DNA of 64,000 nucleotides from Vicinamibacterales bacterium (lineage in GTDB: Bacteria > Acidobacteriota > Vicinamibacteria > Vicinamibacterales > UBA8438): positions 3,576,982 to 3,640,981 of the forward strand of contig OZ244900.1 of the NCBI GenBank assembly GCA_965221595.1. Direction: 5' to 3'. Every line of letters begins with the position of its first letter. Positions within the stretch are counted from its first letter, which is position 1. Both the position numbers and the translations under genes were made by a program. Below are positions 12,663 through 51,630 of the stretch, one piece after another. Below the pieces are notes generated by a model, which had not been told where the DNA came from, did no database searches, and worked only from the letters and a program-made list of their open reading frames with translations.

Positions 12663-12720
12663 GGATGTTCTCCCAGTGTCTGACTCTATCCGGTTCGGAC
12701 CTCGACGCGCCAGCGGTTGG

Positions 12721-13854
12721 TCAGAAGAGCAGGAGAAACGACCCGTCGGGCCGCACGACCGCAGCCGGGGCGCTGCCGCTCGGCACCGTCGTGCCGTCGC
12801 CGCCGTGCCGGGTCGGCCGGCCCGCCGCGTCGAAGATGCGCCAGTGCAGCGTGCCCCCGGCGCGCAGTCCCGGACCGTCGCCCCACGCAAGCAGGGTGTT
12901 GCCGCGGCCGTTGACCGCGATCACCGGGTTCTTGCGGCGGAAGCGAGCCTCGCCCGCGGGCGACGTCGGCTGGTCCAGGCGATCCACAGGCGCGAAATAC
13001 ACCTGGCCCGCGGTTTCCCACGCCACCCGGACGGCGTCCGGCGCGGCGCTCAACGTCGTCGTGGTGACCGGGCAGGCCCCGATCTCCCATGGATGAATCG
13101 GCCGGTCCTCGAACGTTCGACCGGCGTCGCCGGAGATCAGCAGGCGCTGGTCGCGCTGCACGTTCCCGCGCGCGCTGCGGTACGACACGTGGATGCCGCG
13201 GCTGGGCGCGGCCAGCGCGGCCAAATTGCAGCAGCCGCACGCCCCCTCGCCCGTCTTGCTGACGCGGCGGACCGGGTCGAACGTGGCCCCGCCGTCGCGC
13301 GACGCCACAGCGTGCACTGCACGTTCGGCGTCCTCGGCGCCCCCGGCGTGCCAGAAGACGAATACGTTGCCGGACTCGTCCGCCGCAACGGTCGGGGCCG
13401 CCTCGAAGCTGCCGTCCGCCTCCTGCCACAGGGTCCGTTGCGGCTCGAAGCCGTCCCCGGGCGGCAGGCTGCGCGCGTAGAAGACGCGGCTGGGATTGGT
13501 CTGGAACCAGACCACGTGCAGACGCCCGCGCGGGTCCAGCGCCACGTGCCCGCCGTCCATCGGTCCCATACCGACAGCCGAGCGCGGCACGCTGTTGACC
13601 CGCCGCGGCGGGGTCCAGTCCGGGGCGCCCGGCGCACGCGTCACGTGCAGCAGATCCCCGCCGCTCATGACCCCCTCGAAGTAGACGACGTGCACCACGC
13701 CGGCCGCATCGATGGCCGCCCGCGGCATCCGGCCGCCCTCCGGAATGCGCACGACATCGACCGTGACGCCGCCCCACAGCGCGCTCGCCGACCAGGCTGC
13801 CGCCGCCGCGGCCGCAATCGCCAGCAACCCCACGCCTGCCCGTCTCATTGCCAT
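12721..13854 (-). CDS. BNR/Asp-box repeat (sialidase-like beta-propeller) secreted protein
   Basis: ORF 12721..13884, with ATG at 13854 or 13848. Signal is MAMRRAGVGLLAIAAAAAAAWSASA. Asp-box motifs are SRDGGATF and SGDAGRTF. Confidence 0.7.
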   Translation of the reverse strand: MAMRRAGVGLLAIAAAAAAAWSASALWGGVTVDVVRIPEGGRMPRAAIDAAGVVHVVYFEGVMSGGDLLHVTRAPGAPDWTPPRRVNSVPRSAVGMGPMDGGHVALDPRGRLHVVWFQTNPSRVFYARSLPPGDGFEPQRTLWQEADGSFEAAPTVAADESGNVFVFWHAGGAEDAERAVHAVASRDGGATFDPVRRVSKTGEGACGCCNLAALAAPSRGIHVSYRSARGNVQRDQRLLISGDAGRTFEDRPIHPWEIGACPVTTTTLSAAPDAVRVAWETAGQVYFAPVDRLDQPTSPAGEARFRRKNPVIAVNGRGNTLLAWGDGPGLRAGGTLHWRIFDAAGRPTRHGGDGTTVPSGSAPAAVVRPDGSFLLLF

Positions 13855-25712: not shown

Positions 25713-25829
25713 ATGTCGGTATGATGCGCACGAGACTACGCAGTGCAACCGCGCGGACTCCTGCAGGGTTCGCCGGGCGTCAGGCGGAGCCGCGCGGCGA
25801 AGATTGGCGGTTCTGGCTGTGAGGTGGCC

Positions 25830-26615
25830 ATGTTCAGGCTCTTGGCGGTGACTGTGCTCGTCGCGGCGACGGTGGCAGCCGCCGGCGCGCAGGAAGCCGA
25901 GAATCCGTTCACCGCCGGCCCCGACCGGCGTATGGGCGAAACCAGCTTCCGAGTGCACTGCACGTTGTGCCATGGCTACGACGCAAGGGGCGGCGGGGAA
26001 ACCAACGGCCCCGACCTCACGACCGGGCGGTTCCGGCGTACCAGCACCCTGGCGGGACTCTTCGACGTGATCCGCAACGGCGTCCCGGGCACCGCCATGC
26101 TCGGAATCAACCCTGACGTGGCGGATCGCGTAGTCTGGCAGATCATCACCTACCTCGACTCGCTGACCCCGAACCCCACGGATGCGGAGCTGCCGGGCGA
26201 CGTGGGCGCCGGACGCGCCCTGTTCGCCGGCAAGGGCAACTGCGCGACCTGTCACATGGTGGACGGCACCGGCGGGCGGCTGGGCCCGGATCTTTCCCGG
26301 ATCGGGGAGCGGCGTGATCCCGACGAGCTGCGGGCCGACCTGCTGGATCCGGGCGCGGAGGTAGCGCCGCGCTGGTGGACGATGACCGTCACGCGCCCTG
26401 ACGGCTCGGTCGTCGAAGGGCTCAGAATGAGCGAGGACACCTTCACGCTGCGCCTGATCGACGCCGACGAGCAGTTGTGGTCGTTCTCCAAAGGTGCGCT
26501 GCAGTCGTTCGAACGCGTCCGCACGTCCTCGATGCCGGGCGCCGGCGGCACGCTCACGGACGCCGAGGTGGACGACCTGATCGCGTACCTGTTCTCGCTG
26601 CGGAAGGAGAGCTGA
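25830..26615 (+). CDS. di-heme c-type cytochrome
   Basis: Part of ORF 25743..26615. ATG 25830 has a GAGGTGG SD and is followed by a signal peptide. Two CxxCH motifs are present (CTLCHG and CATCHM). Confidence 0.85.
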   Translation: MFRLLAVTVLVAATVAAAGAQEAENPFTAGPDRRMGETSFRVHCTLCHGYDARGGGETNGPDLTTGRFRRTSTLAGLFDVIRNGVPGTAMLGINPDVADRVVWQIITYLDSLTPNPTDAELPGDVGAGRALFAGKGNCATCHMVDGTGGRLGPDLSRIGERRDPDELRADLLDPGAEVAPRWWTMTVTRPDGSVVEGLRMSEDTFTLRLIDADEQLWSFSKGALQSFERVRTSSMPGAGGTLTDAEVDDLIAYLFSLRKES

Positions 26616-26618
26616 CTC

Positions 26619-28244
26619 ATGAAGCGTTTGGCGATGGTCGCGGTGCTGGCCGGCTGCGCGCAGGCGGCCAGCGGCCAGGAGCCTGCGTCCGGCGCGGCAC
26701 CGTCGTTCTCGCCCGTGACCTGGGAGCGGCTGCTCGACGCGGCGGACGAACCCCACAACTGGCTGATGTACTCCGGCACGTTCAGCAGCCAGCGCTTCAG
26801 CCGACTCGACCAGATAAACGCAGGCAACGCAGGCAATCTCAAGTTGAAGTGGGCCTATCAGATTCCCGTGATCGACCGGGCGGAGACCACCCCGCTCGTC
26901 GTCGACGGCATCATGTTCGTCACGGAGGCGCCCAGCAATCTCGCGGCGATCGATGCGGCCACGGGTGGCGTGTACTGGCGCTACGAGCACGAGCTCCCCG
27001 ACGATCTCCGCATCTGCTGCGGCCGCAACAACCGCGGCGTGGCCGTGCTCGGCAATACGCTGTTCATGAGCACGCTGGACGCACACCTGGTGGCGATTGA
27101 CGCGCGCAGCGGCAACCTCGTCTGGAACACCGAAGTGGCGGAGCATTCGCGGGGCTACAGCAAGACGGCGGCGCCGCTCATCGTGAAGGACAGGGTGGTG
27201 ACCGGCATCGCGGGCGGCGAGTTCGGCATCCGCGGATTCCTCGACTCGTACGACGCCGAGTCCGGTGCACGCGAGTGGCGCACCTACACGATTCCCGGCC
27301 CGGACCATCCGGATAACCGGAGCTGGTCCGGCGATTCCTGGCGTACCGGCGGGTCGCCGACCTGGATCACCGGCTCGTACGATCCGGAGCTCGACCTCGT
27401 CTATTGGGGCACCGGCAACCCCGGACCCGACTACAACGGCGAGATGCGGCTGGGCGACAACCTGTACTCCGACTCAGTGCTCGCCCTCGACGGCGACACC
27501 GGCGAGATGTCCTGGTATTTCCAGTTCACGCCCCACGACGTCCACGACTGGGACGCGATCCAGATCCCGATCCTCGCCGACATCGAGTTCGACGGCCGGC
27601 CGCGCAAGGCCATGCTGTGGGCCAACCGCAACGCCTTCTTCTACGTGCTCGACCGCACGACGGGCGAGTTCCTGCTCGGCGAGCCGTTCGCCCGGCAGAC
27701 CTGGGCCGAGCGGATCGACGACCAGGGCCGGCCGGTGCGGCTGCCCGACACGTTTCCGACGGAGGACGGCACGGTGGTCTCGCCTTCCGTCCTGGGCGGC
27801 ACCAACTGGTGGTCCCCCGCGTACAGCCCCCGCACCGGGCTCTTCTACGTGAACGCCTTCGACGGCGAGGCGGAGTACTTCGTTCGCGAGGACGACTACC
27901 GGGCGGGCGTCCGCTTCATCGGGGGCGGGCAGCAGCAGGTATCGGCGATCGACAACTACGTCAACGCGATTCGGGCCATCGACCCGGCCACCGGCGAGCG
28001 GCGCTGGGAGTTCCGCATCACGCCGCAGTCGCGGGCCGGCGTCCTCGCCACGGCGGGCGATGTAGTCTTCAGCGGCGGCGTCGACGGCTACTTCTTCGCC
28101 CTCGACGCCGAGACCGGCGAGGAGCTGTGGCACATCCAGTTGGGCGCGCTCGTGCAGGCCGCGCCCATCACCTACGCCGTGAACGGGCGGCAGCAGGTCA
28201 CTATTGCCGCGGGCAACGTGGTGTACACGTTCGGTCTGGACTGA
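26619..28244 (+). CDS. PQQ-dependent alcohol dehydrogenase (methanol/ethanol family)
   Basis: 541 aa with a signal peptide. It has the vicinal disulfide CCG (DLRICCGRNN), the motif GGT.W, and HDVHDWD around the catalytic Asp. It starts 4 nt after the cytochrome c stop. Confidence 0.9.
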   Translation: MKRLAMVAVLAGCAQAASGQEPASGAAPSFSPVTWERLLDAADEPHNWLMYSGTFSSQRFSRLDQINAGNAGNLKLKWAYQIPVIDRAETTPLVVDGIMFVTEAPSNLAAIDAATGGVYWRYEHELPDDLRICCGRNNRGVAVLGNTLFMSTLDAHLVAIDARSGNLVWNTEVAEHSRGYSKTAAPLIVKDRVVTGIAGGEFGIRGFLDSYDAESGAREWRTYTIPGPDHPDNRSWSGDSWRTGGSPTWITGSYDPELDLVYWGTGNPGPDYNGEMRLGDNLYSDSVLALDGDTGEMSWYFQFTPHDVHDWDAIQIPILADIEFDGRPRKAMLWANRNAFFYVLDRTTGEFLLGEPFARQTWAERIDDQGRPVRLPDTFPTEDGTVVSPSVLGGTNWWSPAYSPRTGLFYVNAFDGEAEYFVREDDYRAGVRFIGGGQQQVSAIDNYVNAIRAIDPATGERRWEFRITPQSRAGVLATAGDVVFSGGVDGYFFALDAETGEELWHIQLGALVQAAPITYAVNGRQQVTIAAGNVVYTFGLD

Positions 28245-32676: not shown

Positions 32677-32928
32677 ATGCAGTTGGCGGTCGAGCCCCGG
32701 GTCACTCAGCAGCCGGCGCCTCGCGAAGGCCGGTACGTCTGCGCCTGCCTGCGGATCACCGAGCGCGAGCTGCTGGGTACGCTGGCGAGCACGAACGTGC
32801 GCACCCTGCAGGACCTGCGGCGCACCATCGGCGCCGGCGACGGCTGCACGGCGTGCCACCCCGCGCTGCAGCGCTACCTGGACACGGCTGGTCAGCCGTC
32901 GTGTCCGCCCATCTGCTCCGCCAGGTAG
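32677..32928 (+). CDS. bfd: Bfd-like [2Fe-2S]-binding domain protein (bacterioferritin-associated ferredoxin)
   Basis: 83 aa with the Cys pattern C-x-C ... C-x2-C (YVCACLRITEREL...GDGCTACHP). Confidence 0.8.
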   Translation: MQLAVEPRVTQQPAPREGRYVCACLRITERELLGTLASTNVRTLQDLRRTIGAGDGCTACHPALQRYLDTAGQPSCPPICSAR

Positions 32929-33371
32929 TTCTGGATGCCGACCTTCTCGATGCGGAAGAGCTGCGTCTCCAGCCAGTCGACGTGCTCCTCCGACTCGACG
33001 AGAATCGGCGCCGCCAGCTCGCGCGTGGCGTTGTCGCCCAGCCTCACGCACAGCTCGACCAGCGCGTTGTAGTGCGTGACGCCCTGCATCTCGAGCTTCA
33101 GGTCGTTCTCGAACTGCTCCTTCACGTCGGTGCCCACGCGGATGACGTCGTAGCGTGCGATCTCGGGCACCCCTTCCAGGAACAGGATGCGCTCGATCAG
33201 CTTCTCCGCATGCTTCATCTCGCCGATCGACTCCTCGTGGTGCTTCTTCGCCAGGTGGTGGAAGCCCCAGTCGGCGCACATCTTCGACTGGCAGAAGTAC
33301 TGGTTGATGGCTGTGAGCTCGACCGTGAGCGCCCGGTTCAGTCCGTCGATGATCTCCGCTTGGCCTTTCAC
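32892..33371 (-). CDS. bfr: bacterioferritin
   Basis: 159 aa: MKGQAEIIDGLNRALTVELTAINQYFCQSKMCADWGF...EESIGEMKHAEKLIERILFLEG. It has a GGAGGAG SD. The 3' end overlaps bfd by 37 nt. Confidence 0.95.
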   Translation of the reverse strand: MKGQAEIIDGLNRALTVELTAINQYFCQSKMCADWGFHHLAKKHHEESIGEMKHAEKLIERILFLEGVPEIARYDVIRVGTDVKEQFENDLKLEMQGVTHYNALVELCVRLGDNATRELAAPILVESEEHVDWLETQLFRIEKVGIQNYLAEQMGGHDG

Positions 33372-34564: not shown

Positions 34565-35227
<663 letters not shown>

Positions 35228-35297
35228 GGCCGCAGGTGATTGATGGTAACCTGGTACATCACCATCAGGATAGCAGGCTGAAGCCGGGGAGGCAGTC

Positions 35298-36326
35298 GTG
35301 GGCCGACGATTCACCGCGAACATCCCGTCACAACGGATCACGCCGCCCGAGGTCTTCTTCAATCGGCGCAAGTTCCTGTCGGCCCTGGGACTGGGCGTGC
35401 TGGCGACGCCCTTCGCCGCGTGCGCCGCGGGAGCTTCCCAGGCCCGCGCGCAGTCGTCACTTCTGGAGGTGCCGCTGAGCCGCCCGGACGTCTTCCCGAC
35501 GCAGCGCAACGCCGCCTTCGCCGCGCCGCCGGGGGCCATCGGCCGGCAGGCCATGACGCCGCGCGACGTGGCCGCGTCCCACAACAACTTCTACGAATTC
35601 CTCTCCGGCCGCGGCGGTCCGGTCTGGCAGTTCTGCGGCGACTTCGAAGTGGAGCCGTGGCAGATCGAGATCACCGGCGAGTGCAACAACCCGCTGACGC
35701 TCGATCTGGACGACCTGTTCGCCTTCGACCACGAGGAACGTGTCTACCACTTCCGTTGCGTGGAACGCTGGGCGATGAACGTGCCCTGGTCCGGCTTCCC
35801 GCTGCGCAAGCTGATCGAGCAGGCCGACCCGAACGCCAACGCCCGCTACGTCCGCTTCGAGACCGCCGTGAAGGAAGAGCAGATGCCCGGGGTGAGCGGT
35901 TCGCCCTGGTACCCGTGGCCGTATCACGAGGCGTTGCGCCTCGACGAGGCGATGAACGATCTGGCCCTGGTGGTCACCGGGGTGTACGGCGAGCCGCTGC
36001 TCCGCCAGCACGGCGCGCCGGTGCGCATCATCGTGCCCTGGAAGTACGGCTACAAGAGTCCGAAGTCCATCGCGCGGATCGAGTTCGTGCGAGACGAGCC
36101 GTCCATCTTCTGGCAGGTCCAGCCCCACGAGTACGGCTTCATCTCGAACGTCAACCCGAACATCCCGCACCCCCGCTGGCCGCAGAACATCTCCTACTGG
36201 CTCGACACGGAGGAGACGTTCGCCACGCCCATCTACAACGGGTACGACGAGTACGTCGCGGGTCTCTACCCGGACGAGCCGCGCACGCCGCAGCGACCCC
36301 TCCGACCAGGTCAGGCGGCACGCTGA
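35298..36326 (+). CDS. msrP: protein-methionine-sulfoxide reductase catalytic subunit MsrP (YedY-type molybdoenzyme), Tat signal
   Basis: 342 aa. GTG start with a GGGGAGG SD. Features are the Tat signal [21 protein letters not shown], then NNFYEF and the molybdopterin oxidoreductase fold. Confidence 0.9.
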
Positions 36327-36342
36327 CGGCGGAGCCGGGGCC

Positions 36343-37863
36343 GTGCTGCTGCGTCCCGACGACGAGTACAACCGGCAGCTCGTCGCCAACGTCCACCCGC
36401 CCGGGTGGCAGAACCCGCAGCCGGCGGACCGCTACAACCTGGTGGTGATCGGCGCCGGCACCGCCGGCCTGGTCACCGCGGCCGTGGCTGCCGGGCTGGG
36501 CGCCCGCGTGGCCCTGGTCGAACGCCACCTGATGGGGGGCGACTGCCTCAACGTCGGCTGCGTGCCGTCGAAGGGCCTCGTCGGCGCCGCTCGCGTCTGG
36601 GCGGCCGTCGCCCGCGGCCCCGAGTTCGGGTTGCACGGCCCGGGCCCGCTGCAGCGCGACTTCGGTGCGGTCATGGCCCGCATGCGGCGACTGCGCGCCG
36701 GGCTGAGCGGCATCGATTCGGCGCAGCGCTTCACCGGCCTCGGCGTGGACGTCTTCATCGGTGCCGGCCGCTTCACGGGCCCGGACACCGTCGAGGCCGA
36801 CGGCGTTCCGCTGCGCTTCAGTCGAGCCGCCGTCTGCACGGGCGCACGCGCGGCCGTGCCGCCCATCCCGGGCCTCGCCGAGGCAGGCTGCCTGACCAAC
36901 GAGACGCTGTTCTCGCTGACCGAGCGTCCGGCGCGGCTGGCCGTCATCGGCGCCGGACCCATAGGCTGCGAGATGGCCCAGTCGTTCGCACGCTTCGGCA
37001 CCGAGGTCACGCTGCTCGAGCAGTTCGCCCGCATCCTGCCGCGCGAGGACCCCGACGCCGCGGCCATCGTGCAGCGGCGCCTGGCGACGGACGGCGTGCG
37101 GCTGGCGCTCGACGCCCGCATCACGGAGGTCGCGCGCCGCGGGCAGGACAGGCTGGTGCGCTACGCCGCCGGGGGCACCGACCACGAGCTGGCGGTCGAC
37201 GAAGTACTCGTCGGCGCCGGCCGGGCGCCCAACGTCGAGGGCCTCGGGCTGGAGGCGGCCGGCGTGGCGTACGACGCGGCAGGAGTGAAAGTCGATGCCC
37301 ACCTCCGCACGAGCAATCCCCGGGTCTACGCCGCCGGCGACATCTGTTTCCCCTTCAAGTTCACGCACACCGCCGACGCGCTGGCGCAAATCCTGATCCG
37401 GAACGCCCTGTTCCCGCACCCCTTCGGTCTCGGCCGCGCCTCGACGGACTCGCTCATCATCCCCTGGTGCACCTACACGGAGCCTGAGATCGCCCACGTC
37501 GGCCTGTCCGAGGCCGACGCCAGGGCCAAGGGCGGCGCCGTGGAGACCTTCACGCAGCCCCTCAGCGAGGTCGACCGGGCGGTCCTCGACGGCGAGGGCG
37601 AGGGCTTCGTGCGGGTCCACCTGAAGCCGGGCAGCGACCGCATGCTGGGTGCCACGATCGTCGCGAGCCACGCCGGCGACCTGATCAGCGAGATCACCGT
37701 GGCGATGCAGGCCGGGGCCGGTCTCGGCGTCATCGGAAACACGATCCATCCGTACCCCACGCAGGCGGACGCACTCCGCAAGGTGGCGAACCGGTTGCGC
37801 CGGGCGCGGTTCTCGGCCGGTCAGAAGTCGCTGCTCAGCCGCTGGTTCGCCTGGACGCGCTGA
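36343..37863 (+). CDS. FAD-dependent pyridine nucleotide-disulfide oxidoreductase (MerA/dihydrolipoamide-dehydrogenase-like)
   Basis: 506 aa. Motifs are YNLVVIGAGTAG (FAD binding), redox disulfide GGDCLNVGCVPSK, and an HPYP dimerisation-domain motif. Confidence 0.85.
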   Translation: MLLRPDDEYNRQLVANVHPPGWQNPQPADRYNLVVIGAGTAGLVTAAVAAGLGARVALVERHLMGGDCLNVGCVPSKGLVGAARVWAAVARGPEFGLHGPGPLQRDFGAVMARMRRLRAGLSGIDSAQRFTGLGVDVFIGAGRFTGPDTVEADGVPLRFSRAAVCTGARAAVPPIPGLAEAGCLTNETLFSLTERPARLAVIGAGPIGCEMAQSFARFGTEVTLLEQFARILPREDPDAAAIVQRRLATDGVRLALDARITEVARRGQDRLVRYAAGGTDHELAVDEVLVGAGRAPNVEGLGLEAAGVAYDAAGVKVDAHLRTSNPRVYAAGDICFPFKFTHTADALAQILIRNALFPHPFGLGRASTDSLIIPWCTYTEPEIAHVGLSEADARAKGGAVETFTQPLSEVDRAVLDGEGEGFVRVHLKPGSDRMLGATIVASHAGDLISEITVAMQAGAGLGVIGNTIHPYPTQADALRKVANRLRRARFSAGQKSLLSRWFAWTR

Positions 37864-37918
37864 GGAGAGCGCGTCGGTGGTCGGCGCGACCGTCGGACGG
37901 CTCGCCGGCTCGAGGTCG

Positions 37919-38710
37919 TCACACGCCCAGCAGGCGCGGCAGGGCGGCCACCGAGTCGATCACCGCGCTGGGGCGCACGCCCGCGGCCGCGACATCCCCG
38001 GGCCGGAACTTGCCGGTGCGGACGAGAATGCCGCGGGCGCCGGCGGCCAAGGCACCCCCGACGTCCGAGACGACATCGTCGCCGACGAGCGCCACATCGG
38101 CGAGCGGCAGGCGCAGGCCGGCGGCCGCGGTCTCCAGGAACGCGGCGCTCGGCTTCCCGACGGTTACGGCGGGCCGGCCCGCGGCGTACTCTAGGGCCGC
38201 GACGAACGGTCCGGCGTCGAGCACGAGCCCGTCAGCGGCCCGCCAGTAGCGGTTCTTCTGAAGGGCGAGCAGCGTCGCCCGGTCGCCGAGCTGGTGGAAG
38301 GCACGGTTCAGCCGCTCGAAGGTCCAGGCCGGCCCGAGATCGCCGACGACGACCGCTTCCGGACTGGACTCGTCGATGGTGAAGCGGGCGAACTCGCCCG
38401 CGGACGCGGGGGCGACGTGCAGCGCCACGGTGCGCACGGCGTGCGCTGCGAGCCACGCTGCAGCGGCGAGGGGGGCGGTGAACAGCTCGTCGGCAGCGAC
38501 CGGCAGGCCCAGGCTCCCCAGGCGCTCGACCAGGGCCGCACGCGGCTGGCGGGTCGTGTTCGTGACGTAGCGCAGCGCGAGGCCCGCAGCACGCAGACGG
38601 GCGACGGCCTCCGCTGCGCCCGGGATGGGGCGGTCCGCCTCGTAGAGCGTGCCGTCGAGGTCGAGCAGCAGGCCGCGCACGCCGCGCAGCGCCGCGGACT
38701 GCGGGGTCAC
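37919..38710 (-). CDS. HAD-IIA family hydrolase
   Basis: 263 aa with LLDLDGTLY (motif I) and [11 protein letters not shown] (motif IV). The GTG start overlaps the stop of the macro-domain gene. Confidence 0.85.
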
Positions 38711-39315
38711 TTGTGCCCCGCGAGGGCGGCTTCGTAGGCCGCGCGGACGCGCGGCTCGAAGCAGACGAACCAGACCTGCTCTAGGGTCGGGGCCGACTCG
38801 ACCGCCCGGCGCGTCTCGCCGACGGCGATGGCCGCGGCGCGCTCAGGGGGATAACCGTAGACCCCGCAACTGATGGCCGCGAACGCCAGCGTCCGCAGGC
38901 TGTGCTCGCGCGCCAAGCCGAGCGCGGAGCGATAGCAGGCAGCCAGCAGCCCGGCCTCGCCGTGCGTCCCGCCGCGCCATACCGGTCCGACGGCGTGGAT
39001 CACGAATCGCGCAGGCAGCCGGTAGCCACGGGTCAGCCGCGCCTCACCGGTCGGGCAGCCCCCGAGCGTGCGGCAGGCCGCCAGCAGCCCGGGACCGGCC
39101 GCCCGGTGTATCGCGCCGTCCACGCCGCCGCCCCCGAGCAGCGTCGTGTTCGCGGCGTTCACGATGGCATCGACGGCAAGCGTCGTGATGTCGGCCGTGG
39201 AGATCCGCAGCTGCGCGCCGCCACCGGCTGGTCCGTCGCTCCCGGATACCGCCGGTGAACCGCTCGCGGACGCGGCGGGAGCGGGACTTGGGATAGGATC
39301 GGGCTCGCCATGCAT
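38707..39315 (-). CDS. macro-domain protein (O-acetyl-ADP-ribose deacetylase, YmdB-like)
   Basis: C-terminal 202 aa of ORF 38707..40731 with ATG at 39315. The sequence [34 protein letters not shown] is typical. It has a low-complexity 35-aa N-terminal extension. Confidence 0.85.
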
Positions 39316-39552
39316 ATCGCAATCACCTACTGCACCCGCTGAAAGTACTTGCCCAGGGCTGCCAGTCTGGCAGCCGCGATCAAGGGCGCCGTCGACTGCG
39401 AGCCCGAGCTCATCGAGGGCACCAACGGCGTCTTCGACGTCGTCGCGGACGGCGGCCTGGTGTTCTCCAAGCACCAGGAGGGCCGCTTCCCCGAGACGGA
39501 CGAGATCCTGGATGCCCTGCGCGCGTTGGCAGGCGCCGGCACCGGCTCCTGA
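39310..39552 (+). CDS. SelW/Rdx-family selenoprotein (CxxU) with in-frame TGA at 39340-39342
   Basis: The ORF track shows only 39349..39552. The same frame upstream reads ATG(39310) [21 protein letters not shown]..., giving [25 protein letters not shown]...[25 protein letters not shown] hairpin lies 15 nt after the TGA. Confidence 0.75.
39357..39375 (+). other. bacterial SECIS-like hairpin
   Basis: GGCTGCCA-gtc-TGGCAGCC is a perfect 8-bp stem with G/U in the apical loop. It starts 15 nt downstream of the TGA. Confidence 0.6.
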
Positions 39553-39605
39553 CCTGCCTGCGGCGGCGTCTGCGGACTTGCGGCCGGTCGGCGCGCAGCC
39601 GCGGG

Positions 39606-41522
39606 TCAGGCCTGCGGCGCCGCCGGCCGCGAGCCGGCGTAGCGGCGGACGGCCGCGACGATGTGCGCCGCCGAGATGCCGTAGCGCTCCAGCAACTCGC
39701 GGGGCTTGCCGCTGCGGGGCACGTCGCGCACAGCCAAGCGGCATACCGCGATGTCCTGCGCCGCGACCGCCTCGCTGACGGCGTCGCCGAGACCGCCGGC
39801 CGCGTAGTGGTCCTCCACGGTGATGAGCCGCCGCCCGGTGCGCAGGCCGGCGCGGACCAGGGTGGCCGCGTCGATCGGCTGCACCGAGTATGCATCGATC
39901 ACGCCGATGCTGATCCCCGCCTGCCGCAACTGCCGGTAGGCCGCGCGCGCCTCGAACACGGTGACGCCCGCAGCGACGACAGTGGCCACGTCGTCCGCGC
40001 TCTCGTGCAGGATCTGCGAGCCGCCGATGTCGAAACGCTCCGCGTTCGTGTAGATGACCTCCGTCTTGGGACGGCTCGTGCGCAGGTACACCATGCCCTG
40101 GTGGGCGGCGGCGGCCGCCACCAGGCGCTCGCAGCTCACCGCGTCGCACGGGTACAGCACGGCGCAGCCCGGCACGCTGCGCATCATCGCCAGGTCCTCG
40201 AGCGCCATCTGCGACGGGCCGTCCTCGCCTATCGACACGCCCGCGTGCGAGCCCGCGAACTTGATGTTCGCCTTCTCGCCGCCTATGCCGGCCATGCGGA
40301 TGAAGTCCGACGCGCGCGTCAGGAAGCAGGCGAAGGTCGACGGGAACGGAATCGCGCCGCGGCTGGCCAGACCGGCCGCGGCACCGGTCATCACCTGTTC
40401 GGCGATGTGCGTCTCGTAGAAGCGGTCGCCGTGTGCCTGCTCGAACTTCCCGCTGAAGGTCGAGTTGGCCACATCGGCGTCGAGCGCCACCACCCGCGGG
40501 TCGGCGGCCCCCAGCGCCGCCAGCGCCGTGCCGTAGGCCTCGCGCGTGGCCACCAGTGCGCCCGGCTCGTAGCGCGGCTCCGGCAGCGCCGGCCCGGCTG
40601 GCGGCGGCGGCGTTCGACGCACCGGCGGCGGCGGGATGGGCGGGCGGTCCGCACCGGCAACCAGTTGCCCCTCCAGCTCGGCGAGCGCGCGATCCAGCTC
40701 GGCGCCGCCGGGGATGGCCTTGCCGTGCCACCCGTCGCGGCCCTCCATCAGCGTGACGCCCTTGCCCTTCAGCGTGCGGGCCAGGATGACCGTGGGGCGT
40801 CCGGCCGTGCGGCGAGCCTCCGCCAGGGCATCCAGCAGGGCGCCGTGATCGTGTCCGTCAACCACCAGGGCGTGCCACCCGAAGGCCCGCCAGCGCCGCG
40901 CGTAGGCCTCCATGTCGTGGCCCCACTGGGTCGGCCGGCTCTGGCCGAAGCAGTTGACGTCGGTAATCACGCACAGGTTGTCGAGCCCGAACTTCTCCCC
41001 CGCCTGCGCCGCCTCCCAGACCGATCCCTCGGCCGACTCGCCGTCGCCGATCAGCACGTAGGTGCGATAATCCGAACCGACGCGGCGGGCGTTGAGGGCA
41101 ATGCCGATCGCCGCGCAGATGCCCTGCCCGAGCGAGCCGGTCGCCACGTCGACGAACGGCAGCCGCGGCGTGGGATGCCCCTCCAGGTCGCAGTCGAGCT
41201 TGCGGAGCGAGCGCAGCGCCTCGTGCGTCAGGAAGCCGGCTTCCGCCCATGCGGCGTACAGCAGCGGCGCCGCGTGGCCCTTCGACAACACGAAGCGGTC
41301 GTTGTCGTCGTGCTGTGGATTCTGCGGGTCGAATCGCATCTCGGCGAAGAACAGGGTGGCGACGATGTCGGCGGCCGAACAGCAGCTCGATGGATGGCCG
41401 CTGCCGGCTTCGGATGTAGCCCGGACGGACTCGAGGCGGAGCCGGGCGGCGATGGTCTGCAGCGCGGGAACGAGTGACGACCTGTCGGGGGACACGACAC
41501 CTCCGGTAGCGGAGTCTAGCAC
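39606..41522 (-). CDS. tkt: transketolase
   Basis: 638 aa with SGHPSS, the TPP-binding motif [13 protein letters not shown], and the C-terminal pyrimidine-binding/transketolase-C domains. An alternative GTG start at 41495 has a GGAGGTG SD. Confidence 0.9.
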
Positions 41523-41541
41523 GCGGGCGCCTCGGCCCCGG

Positions 41542-43026
41542 CTACTCCTGAAGCTCCAGCGCCGCCAGCGCCCACGGGGCTGCGTCCACGCCCCGCCCGC
41601 GGGCCTCGGGCAGCAGCGACTCGAGCGTCGCCGCGGCGCGCGCCCGGAAATCGTCCGCGCCAGTCAGGCGACCCAGACGCGCCAGCACGCGCACCGCCGT
41701 GCAGTTGACGGCAAACGGCCGGAGCGGCTCCCGCAGCAGACCGACATCGTCGTCGGCAACCACCCGGTCGACGAAGCCGCCGCGCGGCGCATCCCACAGC
41801 TCGCGGAGGCAGAAGCGCATGAGCTCCTGCGCCAGGTCGAGGTACACGTCGCGCCCGGTGGCGCCGTACAAGTCGAGCAGCGCGTCGCTCACCGCCACCT
41901 GGTCGGCGAGCAGCCCACGCGCGATCTCACCATCGCCGACGGCGTGCGCGATGCCGCCGCCCCGCTCGTACGTCTCCCCGGCCACGCGCTCGAGCGAGTC
42001 GACCGCGAACTCGATCAGCGACGAATCGCCGAACACCTCGGCGGCGCGCAGCAACGCCGCGGCCGTGCGGGCGGTCCCGGCCGCGTACACGGAGCGGTCG
42101 ACCCGCGGACCCCGCAGCCGACCCCGCGCGGCGATCGAGGCTGCGTAGTAGTCGTCGTCGGCGTACTGGCTGGCGAAGAACCCCCCGGCAGCGCGGTCCG
42201 CCAGCGTCCGGACGACGTACCGGAGGAGGTGCGCAGCCCGCTCCCGGTAGCGCGGCTCGCCGAGCACCCGCCAGCCCTCGAGCAGGAGATCGAGCACGCC
42301 GGCATTGACATCCAGCAGCTTCTCCACGTGCGGAGCCGTCCAGTCGCGCGCTGCGCAGTAGCGGAAGACGCCGCCGTCCACGTCGTCGTACAGGCCGCTC
42401 CAGCCGATGGCATCGAGCGTTCGCGACGCGGCCTCGCGAAGCGGCCTGCCGGCAGCCCCCGACCGCCGCAGCGCGAACCGCACCGCCGACGCGTGCACCT
42501 GCTTCGGCGCGGTGCCGAAGCCCCCGTGCCGCGGATCGAACCGCTCCAGGAGATGCTGCTCGAGCCAGCGCTCGAAGTCCGCAGGGCTGTCGCGCGATTC
42601 TGGCGCGCAATCGGCCGGCGGCTTGCGCGGCGAGCCGACCTCGCCGTGCCGGCGTGCGAACGCCGCGGCCACGCGCTCGAGCAGCGTCGCCATCCGGGCG
42701 GCGTCGACGTAGGTCTCGCCACCCAGCACGCGGCCCGCCGGCGTGAGGAACACCGTCGTCGGCCAGCCGCCCAGGTGGTAGCGCTCGCTGATGTCGGGGC
42801 GCCGGTCGGCGTCGACCCGCACGGGCACGAATGCACGCTCGACCAGGCGGCACACACCGGGATCCTGGTACGTCGTGCGGCCCATCTCGGCACTCCACCG
42901 GCACCAGGCAGCGCCGATGTGCAGCAGAACGGGCGCCTGCTCGGCCCGGGCGCGGGCGAACGCGGCGGCGCTCCAGGGCAGCCAGGCCACCGGGCCGCAG
43001 GCGCCGGCAGCGGCGGTGGGCTCCAC
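41542..43026 (-). CDS. thioredoxin-fold DUF255 / YyaL-like protein with an (alpha/alpha)6 epimerase-like domain
   Basis: 494 aa. W.PW..AAF..A.....PVLL.IGAAWC.W...M....F.D..V..L....FV.V.VD...RPD...Y......GGWPTTVFLTP is typical of DUF255, although the usual CHWCH is replaced by CRWS. Confidence 0.75.
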   Translation of the reverse strand: MEPTAAAGACGPVAWLPWSAAAFARARAEQAPVLLHIGAAWCRWSAEMGRTTYQDPGVCRLVERAFVPVRVDADRRPDISERYHLGGWPTTVFLTPAGRVLGGETYVDAARMATLLERVAAAFARRHGEVGSPRKPPADCAPESRDSPADFERWLEQHLLERFDPRHGGFGTAPKQVHASAVRFALRRSGAAGRPLREAASRTLDAIGWSGLYDDVDGGVFRYCAARDWTAPHVEKLLDVNAGVLDLLLEGWRVLGEPRYRERAAHLLRYVVRTLADRAAGGFFASQYADDDYYAASIAARGRLRGPRVDRSVYAAGTARTAAALLRAAEVFGDSSLIEFAVDSLERVAGETYERGGGIAHAVGDGEIARGLLADQVAVSDALLDLYGATGRDVYLDLAQELMRFCLRELWDAPRGGFVDRVVADDDVGLLREPLRPFAVNCTAVRVLARLGRLTGADDFRARAAATLESLLPEARGRGVDAAPWALAALELQE

Positions 43027-43060
43027 GACGGCCGATTATAATCGGCGGCAAGCGCGGAGC

Positions 43061-44077
43061 ATGGCACACCGGATCACTCTCATTCCAGGCGACGGCATCG
43101 GGCCGGAAGTAACCGCTGCGGTCGTGCAGTTGCTGGGCCGGTCCGGGTTGGACATCGAGTGGGACCGCGAGCTGGCGGGCGCGGGCGCGGTCGACCGCCA
43201 CGGGGAACCGCTGCCCCGGCGCGTCCTGGACTCGATCCTTCGCAACCGGGTCGCGCTCAAGGGCCCGGTCGGCACCCCGATCGGCGCCGGCTTCCCGAGC
43301 GTCAACGTCGAGATCCGCCGCGCGCTCGAACTCTACGCGAACCTGCGGCCGGTGGCTTCGCTGCCGGGCCTGACCACCCGCTTCGACCACGTCGACCTGG
43401 TCGTCATCCGCGAGAACACCGAGGATCTGTACTCCGGCCTCGAGCACGAGGTCGTGCCCGGGGTCGTCGAGTCGCTGAAGGTCATCACCGCCCAGGCGTC
43501 CGAGCGCATCGCCCGCTTCGCGTTCTCGTACGCCCAGGGCCGGGGCCGCCGCCAGGTGACCGCCGTGCACAAGGCCAACATCATGAAGCTGGGCGACGGG
43601 CTGTTCCTCGATTCGGTCCGCAAGGTGGCGCAGGACCACCAGGACATCGAGTACGCCGAGCGCATCGTCGACGCCACCTGCATGCAGCTCGTGCTGGACC
43701 CGGGGCAGTTCGACGTCCTGCTGCTGCCGAACCTGTACGGCGACATCGTGTCCGACCTGTGCGCGGGACTGGTAGGGGGCCTCGGGCTCGTGCCGTCGGC
43801 CAACCTCGGCGAAGACCTCGCCGTCTTCGAGGCGGTGCACGGCACCGCGCCCGACCTCGCCGGGCAGGGCCTGGCGAACCCGACGGCGCTGCTGCAGTCG
43901 GCCCTGCTGATGCTGCGCTACCTGAACGAGGACGAGACGGCCGCCCGCCTCTTCACGGCGCTGGAGCGGGTGCTAGCCGATGGCCGGGTGCGGACCCCCG
44001 ACCTGGGCGGCACCGCCACCACGCGCGAGTTCACCGATGCCATCGCGCAGCAGATGGAAGTCAGTCTGCCTCTGTGA
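43061..44077 (+). CDS. NAD-dependent isocitrate/homoisocitrate dehydrogenase family protein
   Basis: Part of ORF 42791..44077. The sequence MAHRITLIPGDGIGPEV...LVVIRENTEDLYSG...NLYGDIVSDL...HGTAPD is typical. A perfect TATAAT lies at 43037-42. Confidence 0.9.
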   Translation: MAHRITLIPGDGIGPEVTAAVVQLLGRSGLDIEWDRELAGAGAVDRHGEPLPRRVLDSILRNRVALKGPVGTPIGAGFPSVNVEIRRALELYANLRPVASLPGLTTRFDHVDLVVIRENTEDLYSGLEHEVVPGVVESLKVITAQASERIARFAFSYAQGRGRRQVTAVHKANIMKLGDGLFLDSVRKVAQDHQDIEYAERIVDATCMQLVLDPGQFDVLLLPNLYGDIVSDLCAGLVGGLGLVPSANLGEDLAVFEAVHGTAPDLAGQGLANPTALLQSALLMLRYLNEDETAARLFTALERVLADGRVRTPDLGGTATTREFTDAIAQQMEVSLPL

Positions 44078-44528
44078 TGGCCGCCTGGATATCGACGTCG
44101 ATGCAGCCCCGCACGGTGTTGTAGGCCGGGCAGCCAGCCGGGTGCCGGGCCACGGCCCGCTCGGCCGCCGCGCGCTTGTCGGGCGGCACCGCCAGCTGGT
44201 AGCGCACGCGCATGCGCGTGACGCGCAGTACCTTGTCGATCGCCTCGACGTCGCCTTCGACCGTGGCGGAAATGCGGTCGGGCGTGGCCGGTATGTCGCG
44301 CACCTCCAGTGCGCGTGCAAGGGTGCCGAGCAGTCAGGCACCCACGGCCGCGACTAGGTGATCGAGCGTCGCGGGGACTTCCTCGTCCGGCTCCACGCCG
44401 TAGAACTTCTTGATGCCGCCATGGACACCGAAGCGGATTGGCGTGTCGAAATTCTCGAGAAACGCCTCCCGGATGGGGCCCTTGACGCGCTCGATGCGCA
44501 GGCGACTCGTGTGCACCAGATCTCCCAT
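44061..44528 (-). CDS. OsmC/Ohr-family peroxiredoxin-like selenoprotein, in-frame TGA at 44336-44334
   Basis: ORFs 44334..44528 and 44061..44303 are in the same frame, separated only by TGA plus 10 sense codons. The joined product reads ...PATLDHLVAAVGA-U-LLGTLARALEV...ARHPAGCPAYNTV. U aligns with the first conserved Cys of OsmC/Ohr, and the second Cys (GCP) is retained. A GGGAGG SD precedes ATG 44528. Confidence 0.7.
44297..44315 (-). other. bacterial SECIS-like hairpin
   Basis: Minus-strand CGCGCAC-uggag-GUGCGCG is a 7-bp stem with a GG-containing loop. It starts 18 nt downstream of the UGA. Confidence 0.55.
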
Positions 44529-44595
44529 GCTGCCTCCCTTCGACGCCCGGGACCTGCCCTCGACCTATCCTGCGGGGATGCTACAATCCCGGGTC

Positions 44596-47976: not shown

Positions 47977-49284
47977 ATGACGAGACTGAAGACGCCGAGT
48001 TGCGTGCTGCCGGTGATGCTGGGCCTGGCCGTGTGTGTGGGGCTGGCCAACGCGCCGGCCGACCTGCCGCAGATGGACGGCGTGCCCACCGCGGAGCCGG
48101 AGGCGGTCGGGATGTCCTCGGCGCGGCTCGAGCGTCTCGACCGGGTGATGCAGGGCTATATCGACCGCAACGAGGTCGCGGGCGTCGTGACGCTGGTTGC
48201 GCGGCGGGGCAAGGTCGTGCACTTCTCGGCCCTGGGACAACGGGACGTCGAGGCCGGCGCGCCGATGACCCACGACGCCATCTTCCGCATCGCGTCGATG
48301 ACCAAGCCCATCGCGTCGGTCGCGCTGATGATGCTCTACGAGGAAGGTCGCTTCCAGCTGCGCGACCCGATCGCCCGCTGGCTGCCGGAGTTCGCCGACA
48401 TGCAGGTGGCGCTGCCCGCGCCGCCGCAGGAGCGGCTGACCGGCCGCTACAAGACGGTGCCTGCCGCGCGACCGATCACCGTGCAGCAGATTCTGACCCA
48501 CACCGCGGGTCTCGCGAACAGCTACCGCGGCCTCACCCAGCCGGAGTTCCTGGAGCTGGTGGCGCCGCGGAAACCGGGCGACACGGTGGATGGCATGCTG
48601 AAGCGGCTCGCGACGCTGCCCCTCAACTTCCATCCCGGGGACCACTGGGAATACGGCCGGGCCACCGACGTGGTCGGACGGCTCGTGGAAGTGATGTCGG
48701 GCCAGACCCTCGACGCGTACCTGCAGGAACGCATCTTCGAGCCGCTCGACATGGTCGACACGCACTTCTATCTGCCGCAGTCGAAGCTGGACCGGTTCGC
48801 CGCGCTCTACCGTCCGAACGCGCAGGGCACTATCGAGCTGTCGGAGGCGCCGACCGCGGAGAGCCGCTTCGTGGCCGAGCCGCACACCTACTTCAGCGGC
48901 GCCGGCGGACTCGTATCGACCGCCCGCGACTACTTCCGCTTCCACCAGATGATGCTGAACGGCGGCGAGCTCGACGGCGCGCGCATCCTCAGCCGCAAGA
49001 CGGTCGAGCTGATGACCGCCAACCACACGGGCGACAAGGGCATCTGGCTGGCTGGGCCGGGCTACGGATTCGGCCTCGGCTACGCGGTGGTCACCGACCT
49101 CGGACCGTCCGGCACACCGCGCTCGGAAGGGTCCTACTACTGGGGTGGCGCCTACGGGACGATCTTCTGGGTGGACCCGTCCGAGGAGCTGATCGGCATC
49201 CTGATGGAGCAGATCCGGCCGTATACCCATCTCAACGTCCGGCCGGACCTGGCCACGATGACGTATCAGGCGATAATCGACTGA
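47977..49284 (+). CDS. serine hydrolase, class C beta-lactamase/penicillin-binding family
   Basis: Part of ORF 45463..49284. ATG 47977 has an AAGGAGAG SD and is followed by a signal peptide. The SxxK motif is ASMTK, and a YxN-type region follows. Confidence 0.85.
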   Translation: MTRLKTPSCVLPVMLGLAVCVGLANAPADLPQMDGVPTAEPEAVGMSSARLERLDRVMQGYIDRNEVAGVVTLVARRGKVVHFSALGQRDVEAGAPMTHDAIFRIASMTKPIASVALMMLYEEGRFQLRDPIARWLPEFADMQVALPAPPQERLTGRYKTVPAARPITVQQILTHTAGLANSYRGLTQPEFLELVAPRKPGDTVDGMLKRLATLPLNFHPGDHWEYGRATDVVGRLVEVMSGQTLDAYLQERIFEPLDMVDTHFYLPQSKLDRFAALYRPNAQGTIELSEAPTAESRFVAEPHTYFSGAGGLVSTARDYFRFHQMMLNGGELDGARILSRKTVELMTANHTGDKGIWLAGPGYGFGLGYAVVTDLGPSGTPRSEGSYYWGGAYGTIFWVDPSEELIGILMEQIRPYTHLNVRPDLATMTYQAIID

Positions 49285-49377
49285 GCCGCAAACGGCGCAG
49301 CGGGCTGCAGCGGACGGTTCCGCCCTGTCGGCAGCGGTCGCAGGGTCCGGCGCCTCCTCCGTCGGAGGGCGGGCCGC

Positions 49378-50171
49378 ATGAGGCTGCTCCACCTGTGTCT
49401 CCTCATCCGGCAGGAGAATCCGCAGCACTGGGCGCGGGTTGCCAAGTGGATGCGACACCTGTTCGACATCGACCCGCAAAAAAAAACCGGTCCAGAACGG
49501 AGCGCCTCCAGCTCAGCGACTTCACGGAGGAGTGCTTTCGCCGGCTTGCCGCACGGCTCGATCACGCGATGCTGTTTCGCAAGAGAGAACTCTACCGCCT
49601 CGTCGACTACTTGTCGGATGACGAGATTCCAGAGGAGGTAGGCACCAAACTCGACCTGCTCGATGACTTGTCCACGAAGGCGCAGCACGAAGGGGAAGAA
49701 CACGAGATGACGGGCGAGGCACCTAACGGCGGCGGAACGAAACGCCGATGGTTGGAAGACGAACTCGAAGTGCTACTCGACGAAGAGGGCGGACAGAGCG
49801 TCGACGAGCAGGCGTTCGAGAATGCCAGGAAAGCGGCCCAGGACGTCGGGGCCGCGGTGAGGACACTCGAGGACGCCAACAGACGATCCGACCAGAAGAT
49901 CGCCGACCTCTGCGGGGCTGTTTTCGTATACGGAGCCCTGTTTGCGGGAGTGCAGCTAAACCACGACATGAGGAGGGAGCTGCTAAAGAGGCGAGGCCGA
50001 CCGGGCGATGACGAATGCGCACAGCGACTAGAAGCATTCCACGTCCGCCACGTGGAAATGCTGGCGGACGAGATCGAGGATCAGACGAAGGTCGACCGCA
50101 TGAGGAAGCTTGTTCGGGGTACCCTCGACAAAGCCAGGGCGGTGAAACTTCTCGGACAAGTGTGGAAGTAA
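49378..50171 (+). CDS. acidic hypothetical protein whose frame changes by -1 at an A9 tract (49478-49486)
   Basis: ATG 49378 has a GGAGGG SD 8 nt upstream and encodes MRLLHLCLLIRQENPQHWARVAKWMRHLFDIDPQKK. Protein-like sequence then continues only in the -1 frame (NRSRTERLQLSDFTEECFRRLAARLDHAMLFRKRELYRLVDYLSDDEIPEE... to stop 50171). No domain is recognised. Confidence 0.45.
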
Positions 50172-50254
50172 CAGTCCGACGGGCGCACCGCTATACATCA
50201 AGGGCAAGCGTACAGGTCGGAATCCTCCCGATCCGGCAGCCACCTGGACTGTCT

Positions 50255-50400
50255 GGGCGCCGCGGTGCCCCTTGCTGCGCCGGTGTTGTCCGTCAGGCGT
50301 CGCCGGTGCTGACGTTCGCGCGGCGGCGCGGTCACGGCGCCCGACGAGGAACCTATCTACCGAGCCTTCGAGCTTTGCCATGCGATCGCGGTTCTCGGTG
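50255..50400 (-). pseudogene. decayed 3' fragment of a paralog of the coiled-coil gene 51631..52113
   Basis: It translates to ENRDRMAKLEGSVDRFLVGRRDRAAA, compared with ENRERMANLEGALEGFLAGRRDRDAA at the 3' end of 51631..52113. The downstream non-coding flank is also about 70% similar. The stop codon is lost and there is no 5' part. Confidence 0.55.
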
Positions 50401-50659
50401 AGTCCACCACGCGGCAACGGCCACCGTGCGCGCATTTTGCCGAGATTTCGGCCTTGGCGAGCCCCTTAACTTTGGGCGATGGCGTCTTGGTTCAGGTTAC
50501 GATACGCGCGGTTTGGTCGCCTCTCACAGTTGTCCCATGTCCGCTCATGGAGCTTCGTCGTCTTCGGCGATGCGTCTTCAGCGACTTGCTGAGCATGCTT
50601 GGTAGCGGCAACACGAAAGGGTGTGTCGAAGGCGACCTGCTTCCAGGTCGAACGAAGCA

Positions 50660-51508
50660 CTAGTCGCGCCCACGGACGAACGCGGCGATCTCCGCGGCAA
50701 CGCGTGCAGGCGCATCCAGGGGCAGGAAGACACTCGCTCCAGCCACCTCGACCAAGCGTGCGTCCGGGAACTCGCGGGTGAGATCCTGCGCGAGCTGGAG
50801 CGGAAACAACTTGTCTTCATTTCCCCAGACCAACAGCACCGGCGCCCGGAAGCCGGCGAACTTGCGGGTGGCCGCGAGCATCATCTCGGGCTTGCAGCCG
50901 GCCAGGAAGTCGAGGGACGCCCGCCGCACGGCCGCATTCCGTGCGAATGGCCCCACAATCCGTTCCTTCAGGTCGCCTGGCACCGGATTCGAGCAGGTCG
51001 GGCCGAAGAAAGCCGCATAGTCGTTGCGCGACATGAGACGCCCGAGCAGAGGACTGGCAAGCCAGGGCGCCAGGCGCGCGAAGTTCTGCATGGGCTGAAA
51101 GGCCTTGGGCGGAAACTGGTCGAACACGTCCGAGTTGGTCAGCACGAGTCGGCCTACCCGCGCCACGGCGGGATGCTCCGAGGTGATAAGGAGCTGGCAG
51201 ATGCCGCCGCCGGAATCGTTTCCCACGAGCGTGACGTCCTGGAGGTCCAGGACTTCCATGAACTCGCAGACCATGTCGACGACACCCCGCGGCGAGAGAT
51301 CAGCATCGCGCGGGAACGCCTCCGGCTGCGAGCCCAGGGGCCAGTCGGGCGCGATGCCGCGGAAGCCGCCGGGCAGCGCATCGATGACCCCTTTCCACAG
51401 GTGGTGATTGGCCCAGATGCCGTGAACGAACAGCAGGACGTCACCTGAACCCGTGTCCAGATAGTGGAGCCGCCCGCCCGATTTCAGAGTATGAACCTTC
51501 TGTTCCAT
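50660..51508 (-). CDS. alpha/beta-hydrolase fold protein
   Basis: Part of ORF 50660..51532. ATG 51508 has an AGGGGGA SD. Features are LLFVHGIWANHHLW (HG oxyanion region) and the nucleophile elbow VGNDSGG. Confidence 0.85.
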   Translation of the reverse strand: MEQKVHTLKSGGRLHYLDTGSGDVLLFVHGIWANHHLWKGVIDALPGGFRGIAPDWPLGSQPEAFPRDADLSPRGVVDMVCEFMEVLDLQDVTLVGNDSGGGICQLLITSEHPAVARVGRLVLTNSDVFDQFPPKAFQPMQNFARLAPWLASPLLGRLMSRNDYAAFFGPTCSNPVPGDLKERIVGPFARNAAVRRASLDFLAGCKPEMMLAATRKFAGFRAPVLLVWGNEDKLFPLQLAQDLTREFPDARLVEVAGASVFLPLDAPARVAAEIAAFVRGRD

Positions 51509-51630
51509 GCGTCCCCCTGCCCGCGTCCCCAACGCCGCAGCCCGTGGGCCAAGGTCGGCGGAAGGGTCCCGGCGTGGCGGCGCCCCTTGCGGTGCCCGTC
51601 CTTGATGTCCGGGTCAGCCGGTACCGGCGT

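Follow-up and report, generated by a model that had tools for sequence, protein, structure and literature searches.

A 64-kb stretch of contig OZ244900.1 from a Vicinamibacterales bacterium, referred to here as the window, very probably carries on its minus strand (44528..44061) a single unbroken gene, whose predicted product is an OsmC/Ohr-superfamily selenoprotein of 155 residues and in which an in-frame UGA would be decoded as selenocysteine (Sec, U). The initial annotation, made from the letters of the window alone, had described this region as an OsmC/Ohr-like gene split by a TGA at the position of the catalytic Cys. Its two minus-strand open reading frames (ORFs), 44334..44528 and 44061..44303, do lie in a common frame, and the sole interruption between them is the TGA at 44336-44334, codon 65. 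The junction also reads as first described, ...LDHLVAAVGA-TGA-LLGTLARALEV..., and the figure of 155 residues for the joined product counts U.

An initial homology search returned mostly half-length proteins, together with a few full-length sequences that carry C or 'W' at the U column. The N-terminal halves all stop at ...VAAVGA or ...VGAVGG, and the C-terminal halves start just past that point. Homologous proteins are designated below by P numbers (P0002 and so on) and related loci by L numbers (L001 and so on). Inspection of the DNA placed TGA at codon 65 in 17 of 17 metagenome loci. A species scan, with one genome per species, identified 124 relatives; among the best 80 of these 124, to which the species counts given here refer, TGA occupies codon 65 in 80 of 80 genomes, TAA or TAG never occurs in its place, and the frame is never shifted. 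Taken together, all 97 of 97 related loci carry the TGA in the same architecture, without extra stops. The best 80 are almost all metagenome-assembled genomes of Vicinamibacterales/Vicinamibacteraceae, with a tail of 50–56% identical sequences in Acidobacteria, Rokubacteria and Methylomirabilota, and the identity of the orthologous proteins to the window product spans 50–94%. Orthologs at 94% identity are found in CAZMWA010000193, JAAXGX010000188 and CBDAUL010000012, and others at 91–92% in CBDCTP010000001 and on chromosome OZ244229. Two decayed fragments in close relatives had been named at the outset as the mark of a pseudogene; what the 80 of 80 species genomes hold is an intact, conserved frame around the TGA. 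Correspondingly, both halves evolve as coding sequence in a common frame, with variation dominated by the third codon position: across 85 distinct coding sequences, the entropies at the three codon positions are 0.40/0.23/1.19 upstream of the TGA and 0.53/0.42/1.20 downstream of it.

An exhaustive search with the C-terminal half against 1.84 billion representatives identified 234 relatives, and the best 150 clusters of the 234 were sorted. Only 26 of these 150 are full-length; 64 start at the residue that immediately follows U, and the remainder consist mostly of shorter C-terminal fragments. Because few of them are full-length and many are split at U, the Sec form appears to be the majority state. 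About four-fifths of the representative clusters look Sec-split, a ratio that is approximate, as some fragments may be contig ends. At the U65 column, the 26 full-length representative homologs comprise 20 with Cys, two with Ala, two with Asp, one with Ser and one with 'W'.

In public records (NCBI, ENA, JGI and Logan), the gene appears as two unnamed or 'hypothetical protein' halves, or with its UGA translated as Trp. Three JGI proteins, P0001 (L017 443-445), P0003 and P0046, have Trp at the Sec column. The locus of P0001 is among the 17 metagenome loci and has TGA at that column, and its Trp evidently results from a short contig translated by a code-4 gene model. Full-length 'W' entries of code-4 origin thus conceal selenoproteins in protein databases.

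Hairpin downstream of the UGA codon

The 7-bp hairpin that the initial annotation had reported after the UGA is present as described, with its first base 18 nt past the UGA, and local folding yields it as the centroid structure. A bacterial selenocysteine insertion sequence (bSECIS) is defined by a stem of 4–16 bp, a loop of 3–9 nt and a UGA-to-loop distance of 16–37 nt (PMC13188914). The bSECIS loop carries a G within its first two positions and follows the pattern N1-G-[G/U]-N-N2, in which N1 and N2 are able to pair (PMC13188914). The bSECIS check proposed in the initial annotation showed agreement with this consensus at every point: the upper stem is 7 bp, the 5-nt loop reads U-G-G-A-G, and the UGA-to-loop distance is 25 nt. 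Rfam gave no match for the hairpin.

Covariation was examined in the main clade, represented by 59 distinct sequences. Here the 7 bp of the helix are paired in 98.5% of cells, compared with 2–69% in slid registers, and RNAalifold independently recovered the same helix. Its outermost pair is C-G in 45 sequences and G-C in nine, a compensatory swap, and three other stem pairs vary through G-U wobble only. As the helix falls inside the conserved codons A-R-A-L-E-V-R, synonymous sites were tested. The Ala codon GCA accounts for 81–92% of occurrences in the helix, against 2–14% at the 11 other Ala columns of the gene. GTG for Val reaches 99% in the helix (7–75% at other columns), CGC for Arg 88–93% (18–68% at other columns), and CTG for Leu 98% (5–71% elsewhere, except for Leu66 beside the UGA at 99%). 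Furthermore, third-position entropy is 0.52 in the helix and 1.28 over the remaining C-terminal half. This codon bias, together with the low third-position entropy, therefore points to selection on the RNA rather than on the protein.

On the basis of its sequence features and conservation, it is proposed that the hairpin would act as a bacterial SECIS element, recruiting SelB with Sec-tRNA(Sec), and that the ribosome would then insert selenocysteine at codon 65 in place of termination.

A distant Sec clade (L094 and L096-L099, ~6193-6235), of the Methylomirabilota/Rokubacteria type with the motif U-M-T-G-T, lacks the hairpin of the main clade. Its candidate helix, C-GCUGGC-N6-GCUGGC-G, changes to GCUAGC-N6-GCUAGC through two simultaneous synonymous CTG-to-CTA changes, seen in two separate sub-lineages. 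Folding of single sequences recovers this helix in L099 only. It could represent a relocated SECIS element, which is a lead from sequence comparison rather than a result.

Protein family and predicted redox chemistry

When C is substituted for U, the joined product has a Pfam OsmC match (PF02566) that crosses the TGA and covers residues 54–147, with E=1.2e-10 and 42.2 bits (gathering score 27.5). The initial annotation had placed the TGA on the first catalytic Cys column, and the family profile bears this out against the structures 1qwi (Escherichia coli OsmC, AHAAC), 1ukk (Thermus thermophilus OsmC, AHAGC) and 4mh4. The second conserved Cys is retained downstream, again as first noted, in HPAGCPAYN: this residue, Cys133, aligns to the second Cys of the OsmC/Ohr structures, that of the C-P motif, and it is invariant in alignment A1. 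The suggested comparison with Cys-containing homologs gave the same register, with Cys at the U65 column in P0002, P0018 and P0030.

The closest Cys homolog, P0002, is 63% identical, and its AlphaFold model has a predicted local distance difference test (pLDDT) value of 80.9. Searched against the PDB, this model matched OsmC/Ohr structures only, with probability 1.0 and template modelling (TM) scores of 0.45–0.6. By way of the P0002 model, the joined product is predicted to have the OsmC fold. Together, the profile alignment and the matches of the P0002 model assign both the fold and the pair of redox positions to the OsmC/Ohr peroxidase type. Ohr-type enzymes have an activating Arg/Glu pair, for which Arg20, an invariant residue, and the acidic Glu49 and Asp56 are candidates here.

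By homology, Sec65 would sit on the long helix where OsmC/Ohr proteins hold their peroxidatic Cys. It would attack the hydroperoxide and become a selenenic acid, which would condense with Cys133 to form a selenenylsulfide; reduction of the latter by a thiol or lipoyl donor would close the cycle. The window protein resembles OsmC (PDB 1qwi/1nye) and Ohr (1n2f, 6ebg) in its fold, in the placement of the first redox position on a long helix and in that of the second in a C-P motif, and presumably also shares, by analogy, their two-residue peroxidase cycle. It differs from them in the predicted Sec in place of the peroxidatic Cys and in its N-terminal ~50 residues, which contain a conserved HTSR...GP.R...GVHGGIK and have no sequence match there.

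OsmC-like selenoproteins are a known kind. As the initial annotation had stated, they have been reported from metagenomes: the 2005 Sargasso Sea survey described three such sequences, assigned to COG1765 and carrying the motif UxxT (PMC1088965). They still appear in current lists (PMC9312934, PMC13188914). The window protein resembles both the Sargasso Sea and Global Ocean Sampling proteins (COG1765/YhfA type) and the NCBIfam family NF041052 ('OsmC-related (seleno)protein') in several respects: membership of the OsmC superfamily, an in-frame UGA for a Sec (here predicted) at the position of the first redox Cys, a bSECIS-type hairpin a short way downstream, the existence of Cys homologs and an occurrence mainly in uncultured environmental bacteria. 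In contrast with UxxT, the motif here is U-x-x-G-T (U-L-L-G-T or U-M-T-G-T), which puts Thr at +4 where UxxT has it at +3, a comparison made by published motif only.

Against the curated models, the window protein scores 25.2 bits for NF041052 (cutoff 95), 13.7 bits for OsmC TIGR03562 (cutoff 85.8; family members at most 33.7) and 16.9 bits for Ohr TIGR03561 (cutoff 88.85; relatives at most 23.6). Ten further members, taken from all branches of the family, likewise stayed below the cutoffs of NF041052, TIGR03562, TIGR03561 and SACOL1771 (TIGR03563), with scores of 16–34 bits; for NF041052, nine of the ten scored 20–29 bits, and P0167 had no NCBIfam match. Since the family falls outside each of these curated subfamilies, it forms a separate clade of the OsmC superfamily. 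The kind of protein, OsmC-like with Sec at the peroxidatic position, is thus already known, and the clade is not yet recognised by curated resources.

Selenocysteine decoding and alternative readings

The second Sec candidate that the initial annotation had placed within 5 kb exists as a SelW/Rdx-like gene, conserved with its TGA and with a hairpin of its own. Its product matches Pfam Rdx (PF10262) at E=1.9e-18, and of 15 related loci, 14 keep the in-frame TGA at this codon. Public ORF calls cover only the 67-residue C-terminal part of this gene. The SelW-like protein would share the recoding mechanism and the neighbourhood of the OsmC-like protein; its fold is unrelated and its motif is CxxU. 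It constitutes indirect, independent evidence that the organism may decode UGA as Sec. In L021 (11038-11133, minus strand of the locus), the SelW-like gene reads MHVAIT*RTRCKYL, with TAA for the Tyr codon, the first Cys lost and Cys in place of U. This copy seems to have decayed or been converted, and the L021 genome retains the TGA in its OsmC-like gene.

Acidobacteria are documented as Sec users (PMC1794560). TGA is also the commonest ordinary stop in the window, where it ends 23 of 35 long genes, so that any recoding is site-specific; general reassignment of UGA (code 4 or 25) was rejected on the same count. An automatic scan of the window for TGA-joined coding segments returned ordinary gene ends only and missed both Sec genes because their segments are short.

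Several observations weigh against the Sec reading and against the hairpin as its signal. No selA, selB, selD or tRNA-Sec was found within the 64-kb window: Pfam scans of ~45 window ORFs detected no SelA, SelB or SelD, Rfam and ARAGORN returned no match and no tRNA for the window, and the flanks of 60 related loci were likewise without a tRNA. Within the helix, a true double change is seen at one stem pair only. The local fold energy is unexceptional in a sequence of 70% GC (z = -0.36 over 71 nt); as the folding z-score is uninformative at such a GC content, the comparative evidence was relied on. Finally, the Cys homolog P0018 (L018 1650-2120, with TGC at the U column) carries, 20 nt past its Cys codon, where the Sec forms have their SECIS-like element, the 7-bp hairpin GGGCGCG-CUG-CGCGCCC. 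A hairpin as such is therefore not specific, and the proposition that the hairpin is missing from Cys homologs was set aside as not cleanly true. The L018 hairpin may be a fossil SECIS element, if Sec was recently replaced by Cys, or may result from GC-rich coding.

Among the alternatives, recoding of the UGA to a residue other than Sec fares best, and is still improbable. A suppressor or allo-tRNA, or read-through stimulated by the hairpin, would then insert Cys, Trp, Gly or another residue. Both tRNA-Sec-like Cys tRNAs, which are possible opal suppressors, and unusual allo-tRNAs in Acidobacteria are on record (PMC5389517), and the lack of visible Sec machinery in the 64-kb window would be in keeping with such a route. 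However, the selC* tRNA-Cys has been reported in Firmicutes, Thermodesulfobacteria, Nitrospirae and Proteobacteria, and not in Acidobacteria (PMC5389517). The fit of the hairpin to the SelB-type bSECIS consensus, the co-occurring SelW-like gene with its canonical CxxU and the ordinary use of UGA as a stop all speak for Sec instead.

It is less probable again, to the point of being very unlikely, that two separate small genes are present, the first ending at the UGA and the second producing the C-terminal 80–90 residues from an internal start. ORF finders do call both pieces, and in distant relatives an ATG follows directly after the TGA. Yet the OsmC domain and the long active-site helix both cross the junction, full-length single-chain Cys homologs exist, and neither TAA nor TAG ever takes the place of the TGA. 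In the window clade, moreover, neither a conserved start nor a ribosome-binding site precedes the second half: the TGA is followed by CTG, the earliest possible start is a GTG within the hairpin, and no Shine-Dalgarno-like signal or conserved start codon comparable to those of the first half was found.

A pseudogene decaying after a nonsense mutation of the Cys codon (TGC/TGT to TGA) would need a single nucleotide change and would resemble the two fragments given by public gene callers, but this reading is effectively refuted by conservation. The TGA is present in 97 of 97 loci, which come from at least 80 species and are free of frameshifts and additional stops; variation in each half is concentrated at third codon positions; the surrounding gene order is conserved; and the relatives, at 50–94% identity, are not near-identical strains. 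Neither a pseudogene nor two independent small genes can explain this combination. A single Sec-containing OsmC/Ohr-type protein remains the best explanation of the gene.

Genomic neighbourhood and significance

The gene order conserved in relatives is Pyridoxal_deC, the OsmC-like Sec gene, Iso_dh, Thioredox_DsbH and transketolase. A redox-flavoured neighbourhood extends over 34565-44528 of the window, and parts of it are syntenic in L001-L016; the genes also found in relatives are a Pyr_redox_2 flavoprotein, the SelW-like gene, a transketolase-like gene, a DUF255 thioredoxin-like gene, Iso_dh and the OsmC-like Sec gene. Features of the window are listed in Table 1. As conserved neighbours, the DUF255 protein, the Pyr_redox_2 flavoprotein, the SelW-like protein and MsrA are possible partners of the OsmC-like selenoprotein.

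Table 1. Positions of the two predicted selenoprotein genes, their signals and neighbouring redox genes in the window.
Feature	Position	Strand	Remarks
Complete coding sequence of the predicted OsmC-like selenoprotein	44061..44528	minus	155 codons plus terminal TGA at 44063-44061
Shine-Dalgarno-like GGGAGG	44533..44538	minus	4 nt upstream of ATG 44528-44526; read from the sequence, putative function
In-frame UGA, predicted Sec codon U65	44334..44336	minus	Peroxidatic Cys position
bSECIS-like hairpin	44297..44315	minus	7-bp stem CGCGCAC/GUGCGCG, loop UGGAG
TGC of Cys133, predicted resolving Cys	44130..44132	minus	H-x-x-x-C-P motif
SelW/Rdx-like predicted selenoprotein gene	39310..39552	plus	CxxU motif (YCTR-U), TGA at 39340-39342
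Hairpin of the SelW-like gene, GGCUGCCA-GUC-UGGCAGCC	39357-39375		14 nt after UGA; conserved in relatives
DUF255/Thioredox_DsbH thioredoxin-like protein	41542-43026	minus	
Pyr_redox_2 flavoprotein	~36.4-37.86 kb	plus	Pyridine-nucleotide disulfide oxidoreductase
Molybdopterin oxidoreductase	35298-36323	plus	
MsrA	34565-35584	minus	
Bacterioferritin	32892-33368	minus	

Most selenoprotein families occur commonly with Cys and rarely with Sec. With TGA fixed in 80 of 80 species genomes, this gene is a helpful example for studying when selection maintains Sec. It also marks Vicinamibacterales, an abundant and largely uncultured order of soil and marine bacteria, as probable selenium users: a single conserved redox neighbourhood encodes at least two predicted selenoproteins. 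Mis-annotation of the OsmC-like gene is systematic, and no curated model recognises the joined product; counts of the Acidobacteriota selenoproteome would for this reason be too low. The understanding of Sec decoding and of OsmC chemistry is left unchanged, and the finding would not surprise a specialist. Its value lies in the corrected annotation, the fixation of Sec across the order and the marking of Vicinamibacterales as selenium users.

A broader proposal can be put forward only tentatively: that the clade, which lies outside OsmC, Ohr, SACOL1771 and NF041052, is undescribed; that Sec is its majority state, fixed across Vicinamibacterales and also present in Methylomirabilota/Rokubacteria; and that, together with the SelW-like protein, the DUF255 protein and the flavoprotein reductase, it might form a conserved selenium-dependent module of peroxide defence in abundant soil and marine Acidobacteriota.

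Further features of the window were observed in passing. DUF255/Thioredox_DsbH proteins usually have a CxxC motif; the window member (41542-43026) reads AAWCRWSAEM, i.e. CxxS. At ~49300-51600, the GC content falls to 0.61–0.65, compared with a window mean of 0.70. This stretch, which may be foreign or non-coding DNA, holds an ORF without annotation, part of the plus-strand frame 48000..50171, whose product would be acidic and highly charged. Two genes for pyrroloquinoline quinone (PQQ)-dependent dehydrogenases lie at 10836-12887 (minus) and 25743-28241 (plus). The latter is preceded in the same frame by a di-haem cytochrome c gene, with a genuine TGA stop between the two, an arrangement of the kind that the automatic TGA-join scan returns as a false positive.

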